Shown: positions 1 to 47,100 of the stretch, piece by piece | How positions within the stretch are numbered: position 1 is the stretch's first letter | Layout of the letters: each line of letters starts with the position of its first letter | Source: an uncultured Candidatus Saccharibacteria bacterium | Lineage (GTDB): Bacteria; Patescibacteriota; Minisyncoccia; Phycocordibacterales; XYD1-FULL-46-19 | DNA: 64,000 bases | Assembly (NCBI GenBank): GCA_964639285.1 | Contig: CAZXCI010000004.1 | Span: forward strand, 5,252 to 69,251 | Reading direction: 5' to 3' | Translations under genes and position numbers: made by a program | Notes under the pieces: model-generated | What the model was told of the DNA's origin: nothing | Database searches by the model: none | The model's input: the letters and a program-made list of their open reading frames with translations, nothing else

Positions 1-428
1 ATTCGGTCGATTTGCGAGCATAAAGACAATATTTGACCTTTTGGGTTGGTAAGGCCATTGGTTGGCTTATTTGGGCACTTATGGCTTGTATTTCCATATT
101 ATATTGATGACAGACCCCAAAACCTTGTAAAGCTATGCAGAATTGACCGTTTATTACATAATCGTGGGCTAGCTTTACAAATATTTTGATCAGCGATAGG
201 GTTGGACGGATACAATTTTTGGTTGTATTATTACATTAACAATTTAATAAGAGACCTAAACTTATTACTCCTAAGCATGGTCGTCAAATTCCCACCACGG
301 GTGCAAAAAACTCCTAGTCAGAGTTACCTGTGGTGGGTCATATTCCGAAAGGGATATGGGTGGTCCTCGGATCACCGGCTGGCTAGGAGCTTTTTGCAAC
401 TAGCCAGAACTCAAAACCCACCACGCAA

Positions 429-923
429 ATGAATATCGAAAAAGAACCTTCTGATTCTAGGGTTCAAAAATTTAATTGGAATCAACCGCTTATTAAGAAA
501 CTTATTATTATCTTTTCTATCGTAGTTTTAATTGCGGTCGGTGTTGTCATGAATGACGATTCAAACATCAAAAAAACTACGAAAGAGAATGTTAGCAGAC
601 AGAAAGTAGAGACAAAAGATTTTCTGACAATCGGCGATACTGGATATCTGCGATTGCCTAGCACCAAAAATCCAGAACAAATGATCTGTTTGGGTCCGAC
701 TAAAGAATCTTACAATCAAATAATGAAATCTATTTCAGCTAAAGATTTCCTCGGAGTCTTTGAAGCAGGAGGTTTCTGCACTGGAAACGGAACAAAAGTT
801 CAAGTCATAGACGTTAGTTTCTCAATGAAGAAAGTAAGGATCATGGAAGGTGTCCGAGAAATAGACCAAAATGTCTTATTGCGAACTGGTTGGGTCGCAA
901 CAGAATGGGTCGTTAAAGACTAA
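429..923 (+). CDS. hypothetical membrane-anchored protein
   Basis: 164-aa ORF; N-terminal hydrophobic segment (LIIIFSIVVLIAVGVV); no recognisable domain. Confidence 0.4.
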   Translation: MNIEKEPSDSRVQKFNWNQPLIKKLIIIFSIVVLIAVGVVMNDDSNIKKTTKENVSRQKVETKDFLTIGDTGYLRLPSTKNPEQMICLGPTKESYNQIMKSISAKDFLGVFEAGGFCTGNGTKVQVIDVSFSMKKVRIMEGVREIDQNVLLRTGWVATEWVVKD

Positions 924-933
924 ATCCACCGAT

Positions 934-1485
934 ATGTCGACTTTCGCCATTCAATTTCCTGAATACGATATCGCTAATAAACTTAAGGAGGAATTTCCTC
1001 AAAAGGATAATTTCTCGGTAGCAATACCACTTAGTCGCCAACAGAAATATTATGACTTACTATTGGTTAACGGAGCCAAAAATAAATTTGTGACGATTCA
1101 AGTTAAGAGTTCGCGAACATATCTAGGCAAAGAAAAAGATATTTTCGATTACTATTCTTGGTTTAATCGGTTCGATATTAAAGACAATTATAGTGATTTC
1201 TATTTCCTCTATATGACTTATCCTTTCTTCGACAAGAATGGAAAACCTCGGGCCAAATGGAACACGAAGATTCTTGTTTTTAATCAGAGAGAGATGAAGC
1301 AAATACTGGATCAAGTCAAAACTAAATCGGGAAAGCCAGACTTATTTTTTTCTTTCGGCTTTAATCAAGACAAAGATTCCAAGATTTATGGCCAACGAGG
1401 TTTTTCATCACAAAAGGAAAAAGATTATTCAGCTAATCTACTAGAAAATAGAATTACCGGATTAAGGGCGAAATTTAAAGATTAA
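934..1485 (+). CDS. hypothetical protein, possible PD-(D/E)xK-like nuclease fold
   Basis: ORF track 871..1485; an internal ATG at 934 follows the upstream stop by 10 nt. D..(Q)VK pattern (YDLLLVNG...VTIQVKSS) is weak. Confidence 0.35.
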   Translation: MSTFAIQFPEYDIANKLKEEFPQKDNFSVAIPLSRQQKYYDLLLVNGAKNKFVTIQVKSSRTYLGKEKDIFDYYSWFNRFDIKDNYSDFYFLYMTYPFFDKNGKPRAKWNTKILVFNQREMKQILDQVKTKSGKPDLFFSFGFNQDKDSKIYGQRGFSSQKEKDYSANLLENRITGLRAKFKD

Positions 1486-1871
1486 CTCCCTTGAGGGGCT
1501 TCTTCATTTGGTTTACGTCCCGGAACAATCTCGACCGTAATCTTTTCGACCCTTTCGCTTCCAGCATAGTTCTCCCAAAACATCTTCGGCCTTGGTCGGA
1601 CGTAATTCTTCTTGTTGTTATCTAACCAGTATCTGATCGCCCAAGGCTTACCTTCTTGAACAGCTTTGATCAGCCGACTTTCCGCAATATCATTACCTGA
1701 ATCAATACCCATCGCTAATGCTTTGTCCATTTCTTTTTTAAACTCGAGATCCTCTTCTCGCCAACGATAAATAGTATTTCTCGCTAGCCCCACCTTGGCA
1801 CAGACAGAACTAACAATCGGCACCAAGGCTAGTTCTTCTAAGAATCTATTTGATAATTTAGACTTCTTCAT
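1482..1871 (-). CDS. phage terminase small subunit-like HTH protein
   Basis: HTH segment (ARNTIYRWREEDLEFKKE) followed by the ...AIRYWLDNNKKNY... pattern, which resembles the ...aaIFwLKNR.p.W.dk signature of terS families. Confidence 0.45.
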   Translation of the reverse strand: MKKSKLSNRFLEELALVPIVSSVCAKVGLARNTIYRWREEDLEFKKEMDKALAMGIDSGNDIAESRLIKAVQEGKPWAIRYWLDNNKKNYVRPRPKMFWENYAGSERVEKITVEIVPGRKPNEEAPQGS

Positions 1872-3135
1872 TTTCTTTTAATACTTCGACCTTTAGACCT
1901 GTTAATGCTTCATAACGCTTGATGATCAAATCACAGAAGATGGGCTCAAGCTCGACAGAATAGACTCGGCGTTTTAATTGTTCGCCGGCGATTAAGGTAC
2001 TCCCCGAACCAGCAAAGCTGTCTAAGATGATGTCACCGGGCTTAGTACAACGAGTAATTGCTTTGTGGTGAAGTTCTGGTGGTTTAGTGGTAGCGTGTTC
2101 GTAATCGTTACTAGCCACCCTCTTCTCCATCCAAATATCACCGATTTGATCAAGAAGATCGTTACCTGTGCCTAACTCGTTATTCATCGCTTCGTTAAGG
2201 TCAGTTTTGTCGGTGGCGAGATACGGTTTGCCTTTGGTGCCATAGGTACAAGGCTCATAGCATTTGTTGAAAGCGACTCCCGGGGTTGGGTTCTGGCTAT
2301 TTTTAATCCAGAGACAGACTCGTTTGTTCTCGATCCCTAATTCTCGGTAGAGGGTCTGAATGAGCCAAATATATTTCTGATCAGACCAGTAGAAGACGTG
2401 GAGATTAGGTGAGGCGACCATCAGGGCATTCTCTAAGCTTCTCTTGAGAAAATCGTGGTACTCTGAATCAGTGCGGTCGTCTTTGACTTGGCCACCATAA
2501 TTATTCTTTCCGCCAATTCCACCGTTGTAGTCGATTTTGATGTTGTAGACAGGATCAGAGTAGATCATGTTAGCCTTATCGTCACCAAATAGCCGTTTAA
2601 GGACATTGGGATCAGTGGAATCACCACAGATGAGCTTGTGGCGACCTAAGAGGATTAAATCACCCTTTTGGGTTGTTGGAGTCTTGATATCTCGAAGGGC
2701 TTTCTTGAGATCAAACTTTTCCTTCTTCTCGACTTCCTCGCTATCCCAAATCTCAGCCAGTTCAGTCATATCGAAACCAATATTAGCAAGAAAGTCGACA
2801 TCGAAGTCCTTAAGAGCTTCGTAGTCCCAATCGCCAGTGACGGCGTTGCTGGTTAGGAGGTATCGTTCATATTCCTCATCGGTTAAGGGGCGGTTAGGAA
2901 CTCGAACATCTATCAACTCCTCACCACGGCCCAAGAGTTGCAAGGCCTTAATGCGTTGATGCCCAGCGATGATCTTGTTGTCAGTATCAATCGCGGGAAT
3001 TTCGACGAGATTGAATAATTTGAGACTCTTTTTCAGATCAGCCATTTGCTTGTCTGAAATTAGACGTGGGTTCTTCGAGGAGGGTAAGAGGTCGTTGACT
3101 TTGCGCTTCTCGGTGGACCAAATTAAGTTATCCAT
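1858..3135 (-). CDS. ParB-like nuclease domain fused to a beta-class DNA N6-adenine/N4-cytosine methyltransferase
   Basis: N-terminal ParB motif (NKIIAGHQRIKAL); motif IV variant LICGDS...SDPVYN; C-terminal SAM motif I LDSFAGSGST; overlaps the terS-like gene. Confidence 0.7.
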   Translation of the reverse strand: MDNLIWSTEKRKVNDLLPSSKNPRLISDKQMADLKKSLKLFNLVEIPAIDTDNKIIAGHQRIKALQLLGRGEELIDVRVPNRPLTDEEYERYLLTSNAVTGDWDYEALKDFDVDFLANIGFDMTELAEIWDSEEVEKKEKFDLKKALRDIKTPTTQKGDLILLGRHKLICGDSTDPNVLKRLFGDDKANMIYSDPVYNIKIDYNGGIGGKNNYGGQVKDDRTDSEYHDFLKRSLENALMVASPNLHVFYWSDQKYIWLIQTLYRELGIENKRVCLWIKNSQNPTPGVAFNKCYEPCTYGTKGKPYLATDKTDLNEAMNNELGTGNDLLDQIGDIWMEKRVASNDYEHATTKPPELHHKAITRCTKPGDIILDSFAGSGSTLIAGEQLKRRVYSVELEPIFCDLIIKRYEALTGLKVEVLKENEEV

Positions 3136-3211
3136 AATAAAAATGAAGCTAAATTAATAATAGCCTCATTAAATCAGAGGGCTAAAATTCAATTCGGAAA
3201 ATAACAGGTTG

Positions 3212-3982
3212 TTATTTTCCGAGACCAAATATTTTTTGTCGAGCTCTATCTAAGGCTCGTTTGCTATCATAAGTTTTTTTAACATCAGGATGGCCCTCTA
3301 ATTCTCTGGTCGCCTCATTAATTGTCATTTTGTATTCCTTATTTTCAACTTCATCAAGACGCTCAAGATCTCCCCTTGTTTCTTCATAAAGGATGTCCCG
3401 GTCGATATTTCTTAACTTAGGAGCCTTCTCTAACTTGCAGAGATTATTAACAAAATATTTAAGGTCGGTAAGGTCGTCATCGGTCAATTGGTGGTAAATA
3501 TTGACTCTCAACGATCTCGGCTTTTGGTCCATGTCTTTGGGAAAAGGATCTGTAACCGTAAAATTATTTGTTGGTGCAGTTATCTTGTTTAATAGTAGGT
3601 AATCTCTTATGTGGTTAATAAAGTTAGCGGGTAGATTAAACCTTAGAGCTATCTCCCTTGTTTTATGAGAAAAGTAAGTCCACGGGATATCAGTGACAGA
3701 ATATTGAGAATTGCCGTTTTTAATTTCGAGGATCATCTTATCTGAACTTTTAGACATCTCGTCAACCCATTTTTCACATTCTTCGTTTGTTTCCAAGCCG
3801 TCAACAGGGATACCCAGATATTCCCTTACTTCGTCAATTATGATCTGAAATTCTTCGGTAGAGACTAATAATTTCATTATTGAGAGATTTCTCTGGTGGG
3901 TCTTTGATTGTCTCTCTGTTTTTTCTCTCCTTTTTGCCATATTTAGATTATACGACAGTTTAGAAATAAAAAAGTTATCCAC
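3212..3982 (-). CDS. hypothetical protein
   Basis: 256-aa ORF with no recognisable motif; true start may be internal (MAKRREK.. or MKLLVS..). Confidence 0.35.
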   Translation of the reverse strand: MDNFFISKLSYNLNMAKRREKTERQSKTHQRNLSIMKLLVSTEEFQIIIDEVREYLGIPVDGLETNEECEKWVDEMSKSSDKMILEIKNGNSQYSVTDIPWTYFSHKTREIALRFNLPANFINHIRDYLLLNKITAPTNNFTVTDPFPKDMDQKPRSLRVNIYHQLTDDDLTDLKYFVNNLCKLEKAPKLRNIDRDILYEETRGDLERLDEVENKEYKMTINEATRELEGHPDVKKTYDSKRALDRARQKIFGLGK

Positions 3983-4078
3983 AGGTAGTTAAAAAAAGAG
4001 AAAAACCTTATATTTCAAGGTATTTTTGATTGCTTGAAAACGAAAAATATGGTATAATAGGGTCATTATTAGCTAATT

Positions 4079-4330
4079 TTGAAGAAAATGGCAAATTATC
4101 ATGTTACTAAGGACAAGGATTCTGGAGATTGGAGAGTAAAAAGAGAAGGGGCCAGCAGAGCGAGTGACTTCGCTGATACCCAAAAGGAAGCTATAAAAAT
4201 CGCCAAAGAATTATCTTCAAATTCTGGCGGTGGAGAAGTCCGGATTCATAGTCCCAAAGGTCCAATTATCGACAGTGACACCGTTGCCCCAGCAAAAGAT
4301 CCCTGTCCTCCGATTGATAAAAAACACTAA
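4079..4330 (+). CDS. DUF2188-family small protein
   Basis: MANYHVTKDKDSGDWRVKREGASRASDFADTQKEAIKIAKELS...EVRIHSPKG matches the DUF2188 pattern. Confidence 0.5.
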   Translation: MKKMANYHVTKDKDSGDWRVKREGASRASDFADTQKEAIKIAKELSSNSGGGEVRIHSPKGPIIDSDTVAPAKDPCPPIDKKH

Positions 4331-4343
4331 AACAAATTTATTG

Positions 4344-5402
4344 ATGAAAAAGAAGTTTGATTTAAAGAAAAAAATCACAGAGGATGCTATCAGTGAATTT
4401 TTAAAGCAAAAACCTGACTTAAGCCTTTTTCATCGTGAGCAGACAGATTTAGAATTTAAAGAATCATTTAATCTTGCCGGATTGGCAGAGTATTTTCGTG
4501 ACTTTGCGGGATTCTCCAATAATTCTGGAGGTTTTATTATTTTTGGAGTAACAAATAGACCAAGGCGCCCCAACGGTTTATCAAAAAAGAGTTTGGTTCA
4601 ATTTTCAAGTATCGATGAAGAGAGAATTTCTGGTTATATTAATGAACACTTTGCTCCTTATATAGAATGGGAAATGGATACATTAAAAATTAAAGGCAAA
4701 ACGTTTGGTGCTTTTTATGCCTACCAGTCTTCTAACAAACCTGTTATTTGCAAAAAGGGAGATGATAAACAGATCATAAAAAACGGTGAGGTATATTATC
4801 GCTATGCAGGAAGAACAGAAGTTATCCAATATTCTGAACTTTCCAACATTATCGAAAATAGGATTAAAGAAAACAATAAACAATGGATTCAGAAGGTTAA
4901 AAAAATAGGAGAAATTGGTCCCGGGAATGCTGGTATTCTTGATACCGCAAATGCGACAATCGAAAGTGGAAATGGAACACTTTTAATAGATCAAGATCTT
5001 ATAAAGAATATTAATTTTATAAAAGACGGAGAATTTGATGAGAAAAAAGGTTCAAAAACTTTAAAACTAATTGGATCTGTAAAACCTGTAAATAAGTTGG
5101 AGGTCGAAAAAGTAATCAAAGAGAGATTAATAGATGAATACCCTTATTCATACAAACAACTAGAGGGAGAGATCAGGAAAAAAGACCCTCGAGCAAAGAT
5201 CAGCCGAATACAAGGAATAATTAAAGAGAACAATTTAAAAAATGATAAAAAATATTCAGCTTACAATTTTAGAAACAGGAATCAAGAGGAAAAGTATAAA
5301 GAAAATAAAATTATACCAAGTTCGGTCCCTTCTATTTTTAACATGGCAGCGATACAGTTTGTTTTAAAAGTCCTCTCTCAAGAAGTTATAGACAAATCTT
5401 AA
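4344..5402 (+). CDS. AlbA_2 (Schlafen-like divergent AAA) domain protein
   Basis: REQTDLEFKESFNLAGLAEYFRDFAGFSNNSGGFIIFGV matches the AlbA_2 signature (E.LEFK...AFAN..GG.l.iGV). Start taken at the internal MKKKFDL of ORF 4230..5402. Confidence 0.55.
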   Translation: MKKKFDLKKKITEDAISEFLKQKPDLSLFHREQTDLEFKESFNLAGLAEYFRDFAGFSNNSGGFIIFGVTNRPRRPNGLSKKSLVQFSSIDEERISGYINEHFAPYIEWEMDTLKIKGKTFGAFYAYQSSNKPVICKKGDDKQIIKNGEVYYRYAGRTEVIQYSELSNIIENRIKENNKQWIQKVKKIGEIGPGNAGILDTANATIESGNGTLLIDQDLIKNINFIKDGEFDEKKGSKTLKLIGSVKPVNKLEVEKVIKERLIDEYPYSYKQLEGEIRKKDPRAKISRIQGIIKENNLKNDKKYSAYNFRNRNQEEKYKENKIIPSSVPSIFNMAAIQFVLKVLSQEVIDKS

Positions 5403-5403
5403 A

Positions 5404-6156
5404 ATGGATGTCAAATTTACTAATTCAGAAAATTGTCTAATCGGTGAAGAAGAATTTACTTATTTCAGAGATTTTGTCTCCCTCTTAAAACAAATTGAGG
5501 AAACTCTAAAAGAAATTGGGGCGAAAAAGTTTTTTTCAAGTCCTGATCAGAAAATTCAAAGAGCAAGAGAAAGCCTAGCAGAATTCTTTTTTATTTCCGG
5601 CCTAAAAAAAGATACTGGTAAGGACTGGTGGTTATTGCAACCTAAAGATGAATTTCCTGATTTTATTTTAATGACCGTCAACAATGACCCCCTAATGGTT
5701 ACTTTGGACCAATTTGAACTAGTTGAGATACAGGAAAGATGCCAAACATTCGATGAGATGCTCTCTATTGTTAATAAGAAAATTAAAAAGGGTTATCCAG
5801 AAAACTACAATCTTCTGATTTTCATTAACCACAAGGAGAGTATAAACTGGCTATCTCGTTTAGAAGAAAAAATTGAAAGCTTCCACCCTTTCAAATCGAT
5901 TTGGTCTATACATCTCCTTTTCCGTGATCCGAAGGATATTTTTAGTGCTGTCATAACACAAATAAGACCTTACCCCATTAAAAGAATAGAAGTTAAGTTT
6001 AGCGATGAAGAATTATATAAACAATCATCGATCTTGAATATTACCGAAAAAATAGAAACTAGCGAAGGAATTTTTCTCCAATTCAAATCTGGGGTGGTCT
6101 CTGAATTAAAAAAAGAATTGAGAAAAATTAAAAAAGAGAAAAAGGAACAACAATAG
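5404..6156 (+). CDS. hypothetical protein (operon partner of the AlbA_2 gene)
   Basis: 250-aa ORF; starts 1 nt after the upstream stop; no known domain recognised. Confidence 0.4.
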   Translation: MDVKFTNSENCLIGEEEFTYFRDFVSLLKQIEETLKEIGAKKFFSSPDQKIQRARESLAEFFFISGLKKDTGKDWWLLQPKDEFPDFILMTVNNDPLMVTLDQFELVEIQERCQTFDEMLSIVNKKIKKGYPENYNLLIFINHKESINWLSRLEEKIESFHPFKSIWSIHLLFRDPKDIFSAVITQIRPYPIKRIEVKFSDEELYKQSSILNITEKIETSEGIFLQFKSGVVSELKKELRKIKKEKKEQQ

Positions 6157-6166
6157 CAAATAAATA

Positions 6167-7273
6167 ATGGAAGAAAAATCTGGGAAAAACCTCAAATCAC
6201 ACCAATACTACTCAGACCTCTACGATCGCCACACTGTTGAAGAATGTCGGCGCTGGGTCAAAAAATCAGACGACAAAGAACAAATAAATAAAGGAGTTAA
6301 AGATCTCAAAATAACCCGAGCTAAGGCAAAAATCGTACTCAAGTGTGTTAACGAACTCTCGCTTTATTTCATTTCTGGTGAACGCTATGCCAATAAATCA
6401 ATGACAATTCGTGAATGGGAAGAAAGAGACAGAGCTCGAGATGAGTTACTAGAAAAGGCTAAAGCCCCCGATTCAATCGCTTGTTTATCTTGTGGTCGTC
6501 TAATGTTTGTTTCTTCTAAACACCTTGACCTTGGAGGTGTAAAAGGTCCCGAGCGTGTCCTCTTTATGTATGATTGCCCTCTTGGTCACTTACCTCGTCG
6601 AGCTTTCTATCACACAGGTGAAGAATGGCGTCGTCCTCCTCACGAATGTCCTAAATGTAAATCTGAATTTAAAAGAGAAACCGAGCGAGAAGAAGGAAAG
6701 AAAATTGTTATGAAATACGCCTGTCACAAATGTGGCTATGTCGAAAATGAAGAAATAGACCTAATTGATAAGCCTAAGGAAAAAGAGAAGATTGACCGAG
6801 ATTTTGCAAAAGATAGAGATCGTTTTTGTTTGTCTAAAGAGGAGGGTGAAAAATATCTTGAGGGAAAAGCGACATTAGAATCAATCGGACCCCTTCTTGA
6901 AGAATGGAAAGAAAGGGATGAGCACAAAGAAGAATACGAAGCTGTGTCTAAACTCAAGAAATTAAAAATAACCGAACTTGAGGAATTGTTAATTCCCACC
7001 TTAGAAAAAGCTGATTATACTAAGCTTCAATTCAAAGATCCTGAGATGAATAAAGATGTTTTTCTTCCTTTTACTGTTTACGACAAACAAGCCAATCGGA
7101 GTGATCGAGAAAGCGAGATCAAACTCAAAAAATTGCTCGATAAGACCCTTGAAGATACTAATTGGCGACTTATGAGTGACGGGGTAAATTATCGCTTAGG
7201 AATGCTTAGTGGACGGCTAAGGGGTTATGAAAGAGAAGAAGATATGCTGAAAATTGTATATCTTTCTAATTAA
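6167..7273 (+). CDS. hypothetical protein with two zinc-ribbon-like Cys pairs
   Basis: CLSCGRL...DCPLGH and ECPKCK...CHKCGY pairs; charged K/E-rich C-terminal half. Confidence 0.4.
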   Translation: MEEKSGKNLKSHQYYSDLYDRHTVEECRRWVKKSDDKEQINKGVKDLKITRAKAKIVLKCVNELSLYFISGERYANKSMTIREWEERDRARDELLEKAKAPDSIACLSCGRLMFVSSKHLDLGGVKGPERVLFMYDCPLGHLPRRAFYHTGEEWRRPPHECPKCKSEFKRETEREEGKKIVMKYACHKCGYVENEEIDLIDKPKEKEKIDRDFAKDRDRFCLSKEEGEKYLEGKATLESIGPLLEEWKERDEHKEEYEAVSKLKKLKITELEELLIPTLEKADYTKLQFKDPEMNKDVFLPFTVYDKQANRSDRESEIKLKKLLDKTLEDTNWRLMSDGVNYRLGMLSGRLRGYEREEDMLKIVYLSN

Positions 7274-7296
7274 AAATCATTATTTAAAAATAAAAT

Positions 7297-8001
7297 ATGG
7301 AAAATAAAAAAGAATTCCTCGGGACACTTAAACAGATTTCGCCAAGGCTTTTAGTTGACGAGAAAGACGAAAAAGAAATCCAAAACTTCTTTCTTATCCT
7401 TGGCCTTATCTTTAACGATTTAAAAGGTCTGGTGTTTTTTCAAAAATTTCTTGAAGAAAATTACCGGAAACCAAAGGAAGATGAGACGACCGAACATGCT
7501 GGGGAATACAATGGGCTAATGGCTCAAGCTGATAGACTACTAATCTCCACAGTTGGCGAATTTTACAAATTTATAGAAAAAAATAAATCTGTATTAAACA
7601 GCTACCCTTTTTTATTTATTATTAAAAAACTTAGCCCAAATATCAGAAATAAATGGAGTGACCTTGTTAATTTAGAGCATGGTTCAACCATTTTGTCGAA
7701 AATAGCAAAAATCAGATCAAATGTTGCCTTTCATTATGATCACCCGATGAAAGTATTAAGGAAAGGATTTATTGGTAGCTTCTTTTCAGAAAGAAAGAAT
7801 ATCGCTCAACATCTGAAAGCTTGCTATTCTCTTGGTGAAGATATGGAACATACTCGCTTTTATTTTTCAGATGCATCCGCTCAAGACTACGTCAATTCTT
7901 TAATCGGTGCTGAAGATAGGGCAAAAATTAAGGGATCTGTAGAAGACATGAACAACACGATTCAGGCTTTGCTAAGGGCATATTTGGAAAATCTAAAATA
8001 A
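7297..8001 (+). CDS. hypothetical all-alpha protein, possible HEPN-like Rx4-6H motif
   Basis: RSNVAFH matches Rx5H; last gene of the tight four-gene operon. Confidence 0.35.
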   Translation: MENKKEFLGTLKQISPRLLVDEKDEKEIQNFFLILGLIFNDLKGLVFFQKFLEENYRKPKEDETTEHAGEYNGLMAQADRLLISTVGEFYKFIEKNKSVLNSYPFLFIIKKLSPNIRNKWSDLVNLEHGSTILSKIAKIRSNVAFHYDHPMKVLRKGFIGSFFSERKNIAQHLKACYSLGEDMEHTRFYFSDASAQDYVNSLIGAEDRAKIKGSVEDMNNTIQALLRAYLENLK

Positions 8002-8014
8002 TCTTTAATTTGTT

Positions 8015-8049
8015 AAAAAGTGTCACTTTTGTCACTTTTTGCTAGAATG
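8015..8049. repeat. 35-bp direct repeat copy 1 (palindromic operator-like, AAAAGTGtCACTTTT plus GTCACTTTTT)
   Basis: Identical 35-mer aaaaagtgtcacttttgtcactttttgctagaatg at 8015-8049 and 19948-19982. Here it is followed by TATAAT. Confidence 0.85.
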
Positions 8050-8068
8050 TATAATATATTTAGCCATT

Positions 8069-8599
8069 ATGGTTTTAGATGACAATATAAAACATTATAA
8101 AAAGGAACTCGGGGATCTACCCTTGTGGTTAAAATATGCAGTCGCTATCGCCACTATTTTTGGAACCATATTTGGCGGTTGGGGTGTATATATAGTTATT
8201 AGTGATAAAAACAATAAAGATCGATTGTTAGACAGCACGACTGCAACATCCTCAATTCCAATAAACATAACGAGTATATTATCTATGGCTCTTCATAAAG
8301 ATACTGCAATGGAACAGAGAGATTTTTTAAATAAGTATGAGGATGTTAAAGTCTTTGTCGATGGATATTTCAAAGATATATTGAATTACGGCGAAAACTA
8401 CCAAGTGTTTATAGATTCTTCCCTTTTACCTTTCAGAAATATACCGATTGTGTGCTCCTTAGACAATTTAAGCGAAGATGAAAAAAGAGAGTTATTCCTA
8501 TTCAAAAAACGTGACAAAGTATTACTTAGAGGTGTATTCACAGGTGGTAATTACAATGGAATTGCATGGTACGTGAAAGAGTGTCGCGTAGAAAAATAG
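8069..8599 (+). CDS. small membrane protein (cassette between repeat A and repeat B)
   Basis: ORF track 8039..8599 begins at TTG inside the repeat; the first ATG is at 8069. Hydrophobic segment (YAVAIATIFGTIFGGWGVYIVI). Confidence 0.4.
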   Translation: MVLDDNIKHYKKELGDLPLWLKYAVAIATIFGTIFGGWGVYIVISDKNNKDRLLDSTTATSSIPINITSILSMALHKDTAMEQRDFLNKYEDVKVFVDGYFKDILNYGENYQVFIDSSLLPFRNIPIVCSLDNLSEDEKRELFLFKKRDKVLLRGVFTGGNYNGIAWYVKECRVEK

Positions 8600-8600
8600 A

Positions 8601-8614
8601 GGTGCTCGAGTTGC
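8601..8614. repeat. 14-bp direct repeat B copy 1 (ggtgctcgagttgc)
   Basis: Exact repeat of 19985-19998. Lies 2 nt after the cassette gene stop. Confidence 0.7.
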
Positions 8615-8801
8615 TTCACCAATGATTATAAATTACACTAAAAATAACCTTATGGGGCTTGACCGAGAAAGGTTCTAGCTCTAGTCGGCCAGCCAGCTTG
8701 AGCTAGCTCAAAGATAACTAGTTTGAAGACAAAAAACACTTTTTATTTCGAAGGTGTTTTTTGTTGTTTTATATTACAACAAACTATGCTATAATCTTTG
8801 T

Positions 8802-9008
8802 ATGAAAGATGATGCCAAAAAGTTGGGAGAAAATCTCAAAAAACTTAGGATCAAAAAAGATATTAGCCAAATAGAACTCGCTCGTATGTTGAGTGTTGAT
8901 CGATCTTTTGTGAGTAATATCGAGAATGGAAAAAATAATCCAACTCTTTCAACCATTACTAGCTTAGCCAAGGCGTTAGGTGTTTCAACTAACGAACTTT
9001 TAAAATAA
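8802..9008 (+). CDS. XRE-family HTH transcriptional regulator
   Basis: ISQIELARMLSVDRSFVSNIENGKNNPTLSTITSLAKALGVSTNEL is a classic Cro/C1 HTH; TATAAT lies 11 nt upstream. Confidence 0.75.
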   Translation: MKDDAKKLGENLKKLRIKKDISQIELARMLSVDRSFVSNIENGKNNPTLSTITSLAKALGVSTNELLK

Positions 9009-9009
9009 T

Positions 9010-10320
9010 ATGTCGTCATCAATAACAAACACCGGTGATAATACGCTTTCGTCAAACTTAAAGAGCATTTTGCCTAATTGCGATAAGGTAGATGCTTTGG
9101 TTGGATATTTTTACTTCTCTGGTTTTCGGGATTTACATAATGAACTAAAAGATAAACAAATTAGAATCTTGGTTGGAATGGATATTGATAAGAAAATTAT
9201 TGATAAAGTATCAACACTCAAAGATTTAAACCTAGACTCATATACAACAGATACAAAAACATCTTCTCGCTCTATTGCAAAGGATGATTACATTGAGAAC
9301 TTTTCAAGGATTTTTAACGACACAGATTTTTTTGATAATGACGAATCTCAGAAAGCTTTTGAGATATTTTTTTCGCAGGCAGACGAGACTAAAGAGTTAA
9401 ATATTTATAAAATCGAACACAAGATCTTAACACTAACGACTTGCGCGGTTATGGAAGATAAAAATAATTTAACCTCTTTTGAAATTGACGGTGTTAAATT
9501 TTCTCATTGGGAATTTAATTATCGAGACGGTTGGACAAATGACGCTTGGTTAGCGACGGCAGAAATTTCAGCTGAAAGTTTTTTGGATGCTTTAAATGAA
9601 TTAGCGAGAAAACTTTCAAAATTAATCTCTCGTATTTCTTTAATTTCCCAATCTTATATTGAATATATCAACGAACCATTTCTTATTCATAAAAAAGGGA
9701 GTGACGTATTTTTCTTCCGCTACGTAGCAGATGCTCATGTTGGAGGATTGATGTTTATGGAAAATGAACAAAAAGCTTTAAATCAACTTCTTAATAATAA
9801 AAACGTTCCAGAACCTTTTTATTATTATTGGAATGATGCAATCAACGCTTCTGGGTATTCAGCCAAATTACTTCTCATGTTTTCTGCGATTGAGTCACTT
9901 GTTAAAGATAATGGTAAAAAAAATTGGAATTTAACAAATGAAATATTAGGAAAAGATCTAGTTAAAGAATTGTTTGGGACGAAAGAAAATTCAAATACTG
10001 GACTTAGGCACAGACTTGTCCATGGAGAATATTTTGGAAATCTCGATCATGGGAAAAATTATCTGGAACTCGTTCACAATAAAGTAATATCTTACTTTAA
10101 TAAAAAAGTTTTAGACGAAAAATTAATACTAGAAAATATTGTTAATCCTCAGAGAAATTTGTTTGGAAATAAAGAACAAGAAAATTTCTTCTTGAAGGGT
10201 AAAGTCGAGCATAGAGATTTAAATCTGAAAGAAGTACTCAAAGATTTTGATGAAAACCGACCAATTTTACCCCAAAATTATGAAATTATTTATGACAAAA
10301 ATCTAGTGAATGTCTATTAA
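9010..10320 (+). CDS. hypothetical 436-aa protein with PLD-like N-terminal signature, co-operonic with the XRE regulator
   Basis: VDALVGYFYFSGFRDLHNELKDKQIRILVGMDID resembles the a.GYF..SGf..l...l....iRiLvG N-terminus of PLDc_2/NgoFVII-type nuclease domains; starts 1 nt after the XRE stop. Confidence 0.4.
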   Translation: MSSSITNTGDNTLSSNLKSILPNCDKVDALVGYFYFSGFRDLHNELKDKQIRILVGMDIDKKIIDKVSTLKDLNLDSYTTDTKTSSRSIAKDDYIENFSRIFNDTDFFDNDESQKAFEIFFSQADETKELNIYKIEHKILTLTTCAVMEDKNNLTSFEIDGVKFSHWEFNYRDGWTNDAWLATAEISAESFLDALNELARKLSKLISRISLISQSYIEYINEPFLIHKKGSDVFFFRYVADAHVGGLMFMENEQKALNQLLNNKNVPEPFYYYWNDAINASGYSAKLLLMFSAIESLVKDNGKKNWNLTNEILGKDLVKELFGTKENSNTGLRHRLVHGEYFGNLDHGKNYLELVHNKVISYFNKKVLDEKLILENIVNPQRNLFGNKEQENFFLKGKVEHRDLNLKEVLKDFDENRPILPQNYEIIYDKNLVNVY

Positions 10321-10361
10321 AAGCTTAGAAATTGCCATATTATTAAGCTACCAAAGCAAAA

Positions 10362-10392
10362 GGGCCTGCGCGGAATAAATCCTTGCAGGCCC
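10362..10392. terminator. bidirectional hairpin terminator between convergent genes
   Basis: GGGCCTGCgcggaataaatccttGCAGGCCC, 8-bp GC stem. Confidence 0.55.
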
Positions 10393-10396
10393 TGTG

Positions 10397-12073
10397 TTAG
10401 ATAGTTCTAAGCAACTTGCGTGCCTTCTGCTCGGCCATGGCGACATACTCGTGAAAGTCGTCGACTTTGTTTAATTTGTTGTCAGCGATGAGATAAGCGA
10501 AATCGATTCTTGCCTTCTCAAGGAAATCGCGGTCATGAGATACCAAGATCACGGTTCCCTTGTAACTCGATAGAACTTCTTCAAGTGCTTCGACAGCTTC
10601 GGCGTCAAGATGATTGGTTGGCTCATCAAGCACTAAAGCGTTAACCGACAACAGAGAGAATAGGCTGAGCAATAAGCGAGCACGGCCACCCGGACTAATC
10701 TCAGAGATTTTGCCTCGGATGTCTTTCTCTCCGAAGCCAAACCTCACTAGGGCGGCGAAAACTTCCTGATCGATTCGTCCCGTTCGCTCTTTGATAAAAG
10801 CGAGCAAAGTTTCTTCGCGAGAGAGTGTCTCGTGCTCTTGCATCATGTTGCCGATCTTGAGACCAGAACCAATTGAGACTTGACCAGAGATCGGGGCCAG
10901 TTTGCCCGTGATCGTCTTGAGGAGTGTTGACTTGCCACTGCCGTTAAGCCCAAGAAAACCGACTCGATTGCCGTAACTGATGGCCAAACTAATCGGTCCA
11001 ATTTCAAACCGACCAGGATAACCAGCAACTACTTGGTCAAGCGAGATATCCATCGGACTACCATTGCTGTAGGCTTCAAGCGAGATAGACAACGGTTCGT
11101 GATCAACGACTCTTTCCACTTTATCCATTCGTTCGATCCGCTTCTCAAGAACCTTGGCCACCTTACCGGACTTTGACGATTTGTCTTGCTTGAAACCGCG
11201 CAAGAACTTATCATTGTCGCTACCTTGCCAACGAGAACCGCGAGTTGCTGCCGCTTTTTTCTCTCTGGCTTGTTCGGTGAGTCGGCTTATTTCCTCCTGT
11301 TGTTGACGATACTGCTCTTTCTGTCGGCTACGATCTTTCGCTTTTCGTTCGAGATACTCACTATATGAGCCGTTGCTCACATTGAGCAATCGAGTTTGTC
11401 GATCAAGTTCGAAAACTCGATCGGTTACTCGATCTAAGAAGCGTCGATCGTGCGAGACGATGATGCAGGCCACATCAGACTTCAACAAAAAATCTTCCAA
11501 CCAAATCAAGGCTGGCAGATCCAAGTTGTTCGTCGGCTCGTCGAGCAGAAGCAGGTCGATGCCGGTTAGCAGGATGCCTATCAGAGCAACTTTGCTCTTT
11601 TGACCGCTAGACAGATCGGATAACGGCCGATCAAGTCCAACATTGTCCATACTGAAACCAGACATCATCACTTCGGCTCGATGTTTGAGTGAGTAGCCAT
11701 CGAGATGGTCATAACGCTCATGGACGTTGGCATAGTGATCGCTTATCGCTTTGTCACTCAAACCAGTTTCCAGTCGAACCAACTCTTCTTCCAGTGCGGC
11801 GATACCTGTCACCCGGTGCAGATACTGCCAAATCGTCTCGGTCCCAGCCATGCTGGTATCTTGGGGCATATAGCCAAGACAGGTGCCTCGACTAATTTCG
11901 ACTTGACCGCTCTCTGCTACATCCAAACCAGCGATAATCTTAAGCAGGGTTGTTTTACCAACCCCATTACTACCAACCAAAGCCACTCTTTGCCCACGTT
12001 CCAAGCTAAAGGAGACGTCGGAGAACACGACTTTAGTACCGTAGCTTTTGCTGATTTTCTTAACTTTTAGCAT
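10397..12073 (-). CDS. ABC-F family ATPase (EttA/ARE-like translation factor; two ABC domains, no TM)
   Basis: Two Walker A motifs (GSNGVGKTT, GLNGSGKST), two LSGGQ-type signatures, charged ~85-aa interdomain linker; GC richer than the host. Confidence 0.75.
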   Translation of the reverse strand: MLKVKKISKSYGTKVVFSDVSFSLERGQRVALVGSNGVGKTTLLKIIAGLDVAESGQVEISRGTCLGYMPQDTSMAGTETIWQYLHRVTGIAALEEELVRLETGLSDKAISDHYANVHERYDHLDGYSLKHRAEVMMSGFSMDNVGLDRPLSDLSSGQKSKVALIGILLTGIDLLLLDEPTNNLDLPALIWLEDFLLKSDVACIIVSHDRRFLDRVTDRVFELDRQTRLLNVSNGSYSEYLERKAKDRSRQKEQYRQQQEEISRLTEQAREKKAAATRGSRWQGSDNDKFLRGFKQDKSSKSGKVAKVLEKRIERMDKVERVVDHEPLSISLEAYSNGSPMDISLDQVVAGYPGRFEIGPISLAISYGNRVGFLGLNGSGKSTLLKTITGKLAPISGQVSIGSGLKIGNMMQEHETLSREETLLAFIKERTGRIDQEVFAALVRFGFGEKDIRGKISEISPGGRARLLLSLFSLLSVNALVLDEPTNHLDAEAVEALEEVLSSYKGTVILVSHDRDFLEKARIDFAYLIADNKLNKVDDFHEYVAMAEQKARKLLRTI

Positions 12074-19947: not shown

Positions 19948-19982
19948 AAAAAGTGTCACTTTTGTCACTTTTTGCTAGAATG
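19948..19982. repeat. 35-bp direct repeat copy 2
   Basis: Identical to 8015-8049. Followed after 2 bp by repeat B (19985-19998); lies between the divergent FadL-like and ECF sigma genes. Confidence 0.85.
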
Positions 19983-20110: not shown

Positions 20111-20695
20111 ATGAATAAGGAAGACACCATTCTTGTTCAGGAAGCCAAAGCTGATACAAGGCAATATGAGGCCTTGTATAAAAAATACGCAGACAAAGTG
20201 TTTAACTACTTCTGGTACCGTACTGGCCACGATAGAGATCTCTCAGAAGACTTGATGCAAGAGACATTTTTACGTGCTTTTCAAAATCTTTCTAAATTTA
20301 AAATCAGAGGGTATTCGTATCTCACTTATCTTCTCACCATTGCTCGCCATCTCCTCATTGATCATTATCGAAAACCAAACTCTCTTCCGATTGAAGATGC
20401 AGAAAATATTCCATATGAAATTACTGAGGATATTGATAGAAAATCTGATGCTGAAGCACTTTGGCATGCCATTCAAGACTTGCCATCTTCTAACAGGGAT
20501 GTTTTGCTCATGCGTTATCAGGACGAAAAATCAATCAAAGATATAGCAACAATTACTGAGTCAACAGAAAATGCTGTAAAACTCAACCTTTCTCGCACTC
20601 GTAAAAAACTAGCAGCCCACCCCCACCTCAAGGATATGGTTGGATTTGGTCAGAAGAAACGAACGTATACAAAACCACGATTTTTAAATAAATGA
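20111..20695 (+). CDS. RNA polymerase ECF-type sigma-70 factor
   Basis: Region 2 (LMQETFLRAFQNL...YLLTIARHLLIDHYRK) and region 4 HTH (IKDIATITESTENAVKLNLSRTRKKL). Confidence 0.7.
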   Translation: MNKEDTILVQEAKADTRQYEALYKKYADKVFNYFWYRTGHDRDLSEDLMQETFLRAFQNLSKFKIRGYSYLTYLLTIARHLLIDHYRKPNSLPIEDAENIPYEITEDIDRKSDAEALWHAIQDLPSSNRDVLLMRYQDEKSIKDIATITESTENAVKLNLSRTRKKLAAHPHLKDMVGFGQKKRTYTKPRFLNK

Positions 20696-46688: not shown

Positions 46689-46689
46689 G

Positions 46690-47100
46690 CTGATCTGCTG
46701 TCTATAAGCCGAATTCTGTTATCGACAATTATTTATCTGGGATCAACATTGCTGTTGGCCTCTAGCGGCACTTCCCTCGATTTCTCTCGGGACACGGCCT
46801 TGCACTCAGGTAAGGATTTAGCACGTTTCAACAAAACCTTCGGTTTTGTTGTCCCTCCGTAGCTCATTAGAGCGAAGGGGGACAACGGACCTTATAATTT
46901 TGACGCCCTGCTTCGCATAAAGCTTCGCAGGGCGGATGTTTCCTTTCGTCAACATCCGTTTCTGTTCGCACCTCGTGGCTTACGCCAGACGGGCGTTACC
47001 CGCTACCCTGCTACCCGCACCGAAGTGTGGGTGAGTGTTCGGACTTTCCTCCCTATACCGTACGGTACGGGGCAATTGCCCGACAGCAGATCAGGATGAT
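46690..47100 (-). ncRNA. rnpB: RNase P RNA (bacterial type A)
   Basis: Minus strand contains GGGAGGAAAGTCCGAAC (P4 consensus GAGGAAAGUCCGG), AGGGTAGCGGGTAACGCCCGTC (GGGUAACGCC) and ACAGAAACGGAT. P1 helix 46693-46703 (gatctgctgtc) pairs with 47086-47096 (gacagcagatc). GC-rich with no ORF. Confidence 0.8.

Follow-up and report, generated by a model that had tools for sequence, protein, structure and literature searches.

Phage satellites and defence hotspots are characterised by a fixed slot between element genes, filled with unrelated, mostly defence genes that differ among close relatives, and by an integrase and packaging genes that are not accompanied by a full virion module. Integron arrays consist of one upstream promoter followed by unrelated, individually mobile single genes. 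Here, a 64,000-nucleotide (nt) stretch of DNA, called the window, was analysed from an uncultured Candidatus Saccharibacteria bacterium (contig CAZXCI010000004.1), in which the initial annotation had described four tightly packed genes as an operon and as a candidate novel defence module. These genes are referred to as g1 to g4 in their order along the array (g3 is also written G3), and the loci fetched for comparison carry L-numbers. Our analysis indicates that these genes were probably inherited separately from one another and are stacked in the main cargo bay of an island that recurs in Patescibacteria. The island looks like a satellite-like or integrative element, whose mobility and helper dependence are putative.

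The gene content of the island and its relatives agrees with that of satellites and hotspots in having an integrase and the large and small terminase subunits (TerL and TerS), in lacking a capsid module, and in the slot between its core genes, whose content is variable and rich in defence genes and which is often headed by an S24 repressor-like gene. It differs from the described examples in residing in Patescibacteria, in being flanked by a ParB-domain DNA methyltransferase (ParB-MTase) and an uncharacterised protein with two zinc ribbons (g3), and in having a large serine recombinase, the LOOT RNA on the other side, and both TerS and TerL. The likeness to integrons lies in the single promoter followed by unrelated, individually mobile genes, and in g4, which resembles an integron-cassette protein. 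However, there are no attC-like repeats between the genes, no IntI-type tyrosine integrase is present, and the breakpoints of gene exchange lie in the conserved flanks of the island. Integron-like cassettes were thus rejected: the repeats in positions 1-12000 are short, of low identity and of a kind usual for AT-rich DNA, and none is of the attC type. The features of the locus are listed in Table 1.

Table 1 Features of the island in the window, and copies of one associated element in other loci (aa, amino acids; ORF, open reading frame; HTH, helix-turn-helix)
Feature	Position	Strand	Description
LOOT RNA (Rfam RF03000)	253-376	+	68.4 bits (gathering score 46.4); left-hand marker of the variable island
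Left cargo bay	429-1485	+	Two lineage-specific ORFs (164 aa, 429-923; 204 aa, 871-1485) between LOOT and terS
terS	1482-1871	-	Small terminase-like HTH protein; PHROG 4044, E=2.7e-8; cluster c2, in 32 g3 loci
ParB_N-N6/N4 DNA methyltransferase	1858-3135	-	PHROG 498, E=6e-84; left flank of the main bay
256-aa protein	3212-3982	-	No assigned function; leftward unit after the ParB-MTase
Promoter-like site	4030-4058	+	TTGCTT-17 nt-TATAAT, identified in the sequence itself; heads the rightward array
DUF2188 gene	4079/4088-4330	+	PF09954, E=2e-21; first gene of the swappable cassette
g1	4344-5402	+	ATG start; a longer GTG-started ORF begins at 4230
g2	5404-6156	+	ORF
g3	6167-7273	+	ORF; two-zinc-ribbon protein, 3' anchor of the main cargo bay
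g4	7297-8001	+	ORF; HEPN-superfamily protein by model (predicted RNase toxin), independent cargo
35-nt element AAAAAGTGTCACTTTTGTCACTTTTTGCTAGAATG	8015-8049	+	Promoter- or operator-like; exact repeat at 19948-19982
Further low-GC cargo	8039-10320	+	186-aa membrane-like ORF, XRE HTH gene and 436-aa protein, to the right edge of the island
XRE-type HTH gene	8802-9008	+	1 nt before the 436-aa gene
436-aa protein gene	9010-10320	+	Cluster c47
GTCACTTTTGTCAC and GC-rich block	L023 12409-12530, L037 9671-9795, L071 14783-14905, L078 3202-3320, L084 8641-8760		Other Patescibacteria loci
GTCACTTTTGTCAC and GC-rich block, more copies	L106 12838-12960, L114 1262-1385 (-), L095 6546-6665, L020 7404-7530

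For the linkage tests, 80 g3 loci from species-representative genomes and several obtained by exact look-up gave 83 non-redundant loci with up to 10 kilobases (kb) on each side. Homologues in them were sought with tblastn, by clustering of ORFs, and with phmmer against translations in all six frames. An exact look-up with the g3 product of the window yielded no contig, and one with the g4 product yielded only a contig of 1.3 kb. Homologues of g1 were present in 0/83 of these loci and homologues of g2 likewise in 0/83. Homologues of g4 occurred only in L006-8, whose g3 is 91% identical to that of the window, and in L012, where the g4 copy is 34% identical and lies upstream of g3, in reversed order relative to the window. 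No g3 was found in 80 metagenome loci fetched by the g4 profile, and no AlbA_2 gene in the loci of g2 or g4 homologues. The sole g2 or g4 locus with g3 was L096, where both g3 and g4 lie on a contig of 1.3 kb whose sequence is identical to that of the window. Conserved co-occurrence of the four genes, the check proposed for a module, was therefore absent from the 83 g3 loci as well as from the g2 and g4 loci, and no homologue of g2, g3 or g4 stood beside an AlbA_2 gene in the sample available, an outcome that the initial annotation had itself named as speaking against a module.

The exchange of genes next to g3 was directly visible in close relatives. DNA homology between the window and L006 covers 1726-4097 (82%) and 6184-7943 (89%), and the 2.1 kb in between (4098-6183), encoding the DUF2188 protein, g1 and g2, are swapped in L006 for a 1.5-kb segment with genes for three unrelated proteins. 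On the left, the breakpoint falls immediately past the promoter, and on the right 17 nt into g3 (codon 6). In L009, with a g3 of 70% identity, an HTH gene, an M78 peptidase gene and a T5orf172 gene precede g3 and a different gene follows it, and in L016, L047, L057 and L062 the bay is empty, the ParB-MTase and g3 being direct divergent neighbours. The gene immediately 5' of g3 belonged to 66 clusters across 77 loci and the gene immediately 3' of it to 74 clusters across 79 loci. The 5' neighbour was co-directional with g3 in 59/77 loci, at a median gap of 11 nt. Close spacing to g3 is thus the rule for any neighbour and therefore uninformative on partnership.

The coordinates of the four co-directional ORFs and the gaps of 1, 10 and 23 nt between them were confirmed, all on the plus strand. 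The operon of four held in its close packing but not in its number of genes, since the DUF2188 gene ends 13 nt 5' of g1, behind the promoter, and the tight array thus comprises five genes. The promoter-like site at 4030-4058 lies within the block conserved with L006 (homology to 4097) and was missed by the promoter scan, its -35 hexamer fitting at 3/6 positions only. It is the only good promoter for the array; the interior of g1-g4 has weak promoter-like matches only. Terminator prediction gave no site between g1 and g4, although two weak terminator-like sites fall inside g1 at 4474-4531.

This arrangement has to be weighed against the possibility of a multi-gene defence system that is particular to this lineage and made up of all four (or five) genes, a recent mix of older parts in which the AlbA_2 protein would sense, g2 and g4 would be nuclease effectors and g3 would be a scaffold. 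Such a system would agree with the co-directional genes at gaps of 13, 1, 10 and 23 nt, with the one good promoter and no predicted terminator from g1 to g4, and with the defence-hotspot setting, and two predicted nucleases and a nucleic-acid-binding domain would be plausible parts of it. However, no pair of genes is conserved in its co-occurrence apart from g3-g4 in near-identical relatives, the 91%-identical relative retains g3-g4 while other genes replace g1-g2, the 70% relative retains g3 alone, and the same close spacing is found between g3 and 66 different upstream families. A dedicated system is thus very improbable indeed. From the claim of a novel defence module, g1 and g2 remain as defence candidates by position, but the genes probably do not make up one four-component system.

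The island frame was defined by features that recur around g3. A covariance model of LOOT, built from four copies, was run on 84 g3 loci and the window (85 sources) and on 88 other loci, and detected the RNA in 33/85 of the former and 2/88 of the latter (for example L037 217-342, L023 3901-4026 and L084 1295-1423, plus 29 more loci). LOOT usually adjoins the integrase and heads a cargo array that ends in g3. This orphan Rfam small RNA is thus strongly linked to islands with g3, the ParB-methylase and the serine integrase; the literature searched held no information on its function. The ParB-MTase (cluster c1) was found in 34 g3 loci, with 37/39 copies pointing away from g3. A large serine integrase, matching Resolvase, Recombinase and Zn_ribbon_recom, was found in 25, and TerL (phrog_38, E=7.7e-73) in 16, the integrase directly following TerL. 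The order on the map is a left-pointing integrase, LOOT, small cargo, the left-pointing TerL-terS-ParB-methylase block, main cargo and g3. In loci L069, L029, L077 and L043 no packaging genes are seen, and the order is LOOT, cargo, g3; in L054 the run of LOOT, cargo and g3 stands immediately behind its packaging block, and in L040 and L063 LOOT and g3 are near neighbours. The window follows the map order, with TerL absent and the integrase side cut by the window start.

A decaying prophage, of which g1-g4 would be early or moron genes and g3 a phage regulator, could also account for a terS-like gene and a ParB-MTase adjoining the array, for TerL and an integrase in relatives, and for the S24 repressor-like gene that heads the bay in 9 loci. 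Against this, only g3, the ParB-MTase, terS, the integrase, TerL and HsdM form clusters common to at least 10 loci, and the 10 kb to each side of g3 in the 83 loci yielded no recurrent portal, capsid, tail or lysis family. The integrase stands directly after TerL, and g3 is near-absent from IMG/VR and unmatched in BFVD. A full prophage was rejected, there being no recurrent structural genes, and a decaying one is highly unlikely.

The main bay, from the ParB-methylase to g3, contained 86 ORFs in 76 clusters in 28 other loci. These include HamA and HamB of the Hachiman system (HamB E=5.7e-276), SAVED, TIR and ThsB-type TIR proteins, a KAP NTPase, AAA_13, the Lamassu-like LmuA, Eco57I-type and D12 methylases, M78/HTH pairs and S24 repressor-like proteins. 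Upstream of g3, type I restriction-modification genes with SduA_C were found in L010 and L012, and NotI with its methylase in L001. The slot is a defence hotspot, and the defence-island context proposed for the window was thereby borne out, the bay elsewhere carrying Hachiman, TIR/SAVED, Lamassu-like and restriction-modification genes. Because of their position in this hotspot, the DUF2188 gene, g1 and g2 are reasonable defence candidates.

The two ORFs of the left bay had no homologue in 179 fetched loci and no family match, and the same position in other loci holds SNase (staphylococcal-nuclease-type) or other genes. The 204-aa ORF contains a D...IQVKSS stretch, a PD-(D/E)xK-like motif. A cluster of proteins of about 370 aa (c8) is repeatedly the first gene after LOOT (L069, L029, L077, L054, L063 and L052); it has a D...IIETK nuclease-like motif and no Pfam or PHROG match.

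The initial annotation had assigned no recognisable family to g2-g4, and this was upheld in Pfam, NCBIfam, PHROGs and PADLOC. For g3, only one zinc-ribbon-level match appeared in PADLOC (E=0.009), and its sequence matched nothing in the PDB beyond zinc-ribbon or L23-like noise. Its homologues number 793 (best E=1e-215); almost all of them are full-length, their identity is about 50%, and most come from metagenome-assembled genomes (MAGs) of Patescibacteria. At least 89 relatives were found in 185,579 species genomes. The two cysteine ribbons had been recognised correctly: 44 columns are invariant in 31 sequences, including both ribbons (C106/C109/C137 and C161/C164/C186/C189). The structure model has no enzyme-like domain and no known fold, and no fold match below E=0.04 was found in BFVD. 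A phage origin of g3 was rejected, with 1 match in IMG/VR (2.9 million viral contigs). Some g3 loci come from MAGs labelled 'uncultured Gammaproteobacteria' (L022, L044, L054, L066 and L085) and one from a MAG with the label Woesearchaeota (L051). These labels are likely taxonomic mislabels or binning errors, because the gene content of the loci resembles that of Patescibacteria loci.

The gene g3 might also be read as a defence or abortive-infection gene that acts by itself and is widespread in Patescibacteria, and not as a structural gene of the element. It is a rare accessory gene, as the count in species genomes shows, it always stands amid variable, defence-rich genes, and it has no known fold or family and one match among the 2.9 million viral contigs. 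However, its conservation is unusual for such a gene (about 50% identity and constant length across distant classes of the candidate phyla radiation, CPR), it keeps a fixed place at the arrays' 3' end, it is linked to the ParB-MTase/terS and to LOOT, and the model lacks an enzyme-like domain. A stand-alone defence role is thus unlikely. For g3 we favour a role in maintaining or regulating the island, in which it would bind nucleic acid, over a role as an effector; the LOOT RNA may possibly be involved. As a tentative extension, the islands from LOOT to g3 could be an undescribed satellite-like element family of Patescibacteria, of which LOOT and G3 would be the own machinery, for example as an RNA-protein pair in maintenance, packaging or recombination, and the slot would be the main store of immune genes in CPR bacteria.

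The gene g4 is real (best homologue E=1e-149, 42 database homologues and 153 metagenome relatives). Searches of Pfam, NCBIfam, PHROGs and PADLOC assigned it to no family, and at the sequence level it matched no HEPN family in Pfam or the PDB. The proposed HEPN-like character with an Rx5H motif was substantiated by alignment and model: R140-x5-H146 is invariant in 41 sequences, and S141, N142, F145, Y147 and D148 are conserved at 90% or more. The predicted structure is an all-alpha helical bundle resembling solved HEPN domains, in which R140 lies within helix 131-144 and H146 in the loop right after it. An arginine in the helix and a histidine beyond it is the arrangement expected for the HEPN motif (PMC3710099). 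By its modelled fold and invariant Rx5H, g4 is assigned to the HEPN proteins, and it is predicted to be an RNase toxin. Compared with the HEPN integron-cassette family (PDB 3jrt) and the MNT-HEPN toxins, g4 is larger (234 aa), and unlike the latter it has no MNT or antitoxin gene beside it. In L106 and L120 a g4-like gene stands right beside the ParB-methylase and terS, that is, in the main bay, which suggests that g4 is cargo too.

The AlbA_2 domain of g1 was verified: residues 32-159 match Pfam PF04326 (SLFN_AlbA_2) at E=6.7e-16, with 59.3 bits against a gathering cutoff of 25.3, over profile positions 1-115 of 118. In this full-length domain, well above the Pfam threshold, g1 is like the Schlafen/AlbA_2 proteins of prokaryotes, but it lacks the HTH or ATPase module typical of many bacterial members, the C-terminal region of about 190 aa matches nothing, and it has no relatives in the sampled loci. 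No homologue was found in 179 fetched loci at E<1e-3, nor in 50,697 phage records or IMG/VR. It is a singleton cluster at 90% identity, and against the PDB phmmer gave Schlafen 8 as a weak match (E=0.48). No PADLOC model matched g1, and the PADLOC check for a known defence system gave no match for g2 and g4 either. The DUF2188 protein matches the PADLOC candidate PDC-S16 at E=1e-19.

The gene g2 is real (best homologue E=1e-152) and rare, with 19 homologues among 5.8 billion clusters and 123 representatives in a profile search. It had no match in Pfam, NCBIfam, PHROGs or PADLOC, nor by sequence in the PDB, and 82 distant relatives shared no Pfam family. In these relatives E56, P85, D86, E105 and K126 are invariant or nearly so. 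K126 sits 21 residues past E105 and not in an ExK triplet, so the signature appears PD-(D/E)xK-like with a displaced lysine, making g2 a candidate nuclease as judged from conserved residues. In the four other contexts sampled, g2 homologues are solitary, beside a Mrr_cat gene or beside unannotated genes, with no AlbA_2 gene or g3 nearby.

For the stack of independent genes, the following course of events is proposed. The frame consists of a serine integrase, LOOT, a small bay, TerL/TerS/ParB-MTase read leftward, a divergent promoter, a main bay read rightward, and g3, with the integrase of the island in the window expected just beyond the left window end. Unrelated genes are exchanged between the promoter/ParB-MTase side and the start of g3, probably by homologous recombination in the flanks, and the incoming bay genes would be read through into g3. 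DUF2188, g1 and g2 would be one cassette exchanged as a block, and g4 a separate HEPN toxin-type cassette behind g3, all array genes being transcribed from one promoter. We infer from position and domain type that g1, g2 and g4 would be defence or abortive-infection genes acting on their own: g1 would bind or cleave nucleic acid via its Schlafen-type domain, g2 would act as a nuclease and g4 as an RNase toxin.

Several points weigh against this explanation. The frame is recurrent and not universal: among the 51 g3 loci in which 8 kb or more are available upstream, the ParB-MTase/terS are present in 23 and LOOT in 27. The island was delimited here by gene order, and all functions are predictions from sequence and models. 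The linkage of g1 was sampled at g3, g2 and g4 loci. The gene g3 marks the 3' end of the hypervariable bay, and its role as an 'anchor' is positional, without a functional hint. Finally, because the DNA between g1 and g4 has no predicted terminator and its promoter-like matches are all weak, the five array genes are probably co-transcribed, so a lineage-specific functional interplay is possible.

Apart from the array, the GC content is 32-36% across the island (about 4000-10350), against 42-46% in most of the remaining window and about 44% for the contig, and it climbs at about 10350, the right edge of the island. Relatives of the 436-aa protein stand directly beside g3 in L051 and L055. Its N-terminus weakly matches the phage family phrog_26785, and its C-terminal part has LRHRLVHGEY, an Rx4H-like motif; with the XRE HTH gene, it may form a second HEPN-type cargo pair. 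On the left side, the 256-aa protein is common only to L006 (86%) and L017 (26%) among the fetched loci.

The 35-nt element AAAAAGTGTCACTTTTGTCACTTTTTGCTAGAATG has just two exact copies in the 64 kb, 11.9 kb apart, against 0.02 expected by chance. It has the form GTGTCA-17-TAGAAT and contains two TGTCAC half-sites. One copy is found just 3' of g4, the other upstream of an ORF at 20111-20695, which appears sigma-70-family-like from its translation. The core GTCACTTTTGTCAC was found in 15/177 loci, mostly downstream of g3 or g4 and in the same orientation. In other Patescibacteria loci it is followed by a conserved GC-rich block of about 100 nt (GCACGAGACGCGTCG ... GGTTCTAACTCGAGACGGCCAGCC), often 0-4 kb downstream of g3, in which two similar boxes vary in parallel between lineages. 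A known RNA was rejected for this block: searches for Rfam families, tRNAs and tmRNAs gave no match, and the plus strand showed no consensus fold. The block may be an RNA that lacks annotation, an element bound by protein or an attachment site. Elsewhere in the window, a bacterial class A RNase P RNA (46689-47091, minus strand, 110.9 bits) and seven tRNA genes were found, which are ordinary host genes and confirm the chromosomal context. The host MAG belongs to Patescibacteria, and an ABC-F protein in the flank groups, in clusters at 90% or more, with proteins of Woesebacteria and Patescibacteria.

A large part of bacterial diversity belongs to Patescibacteria, most of which are uncultured. 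To our knowledge, they are largely without CRISPR, and both the repertoire of their immune genes and their mobile elements have been charted poorly. The frame of g3, ParB-methylase and LOOT brackets a slot that alternates Hachiman, TIR/SAVED, Lamassu-like and restriction systems with unknown genes. It is searchable and would thus allow a phylum-specific harvest of candidate defence genes by position, in the way that the hotspots of P2/P4 and of PICIs (chromosomal islands inducible by phages) were used for enterobacteria. It also provides the first genomic context for the orphan Rfam RNA LOOT and singles out g3 as an abundant protein family without a known fold. If the islands from LOOT to g3 are indeed an element family of their own, g1, g2 and g4, together with dozens of unannotated cargo families, would be new defence genes.

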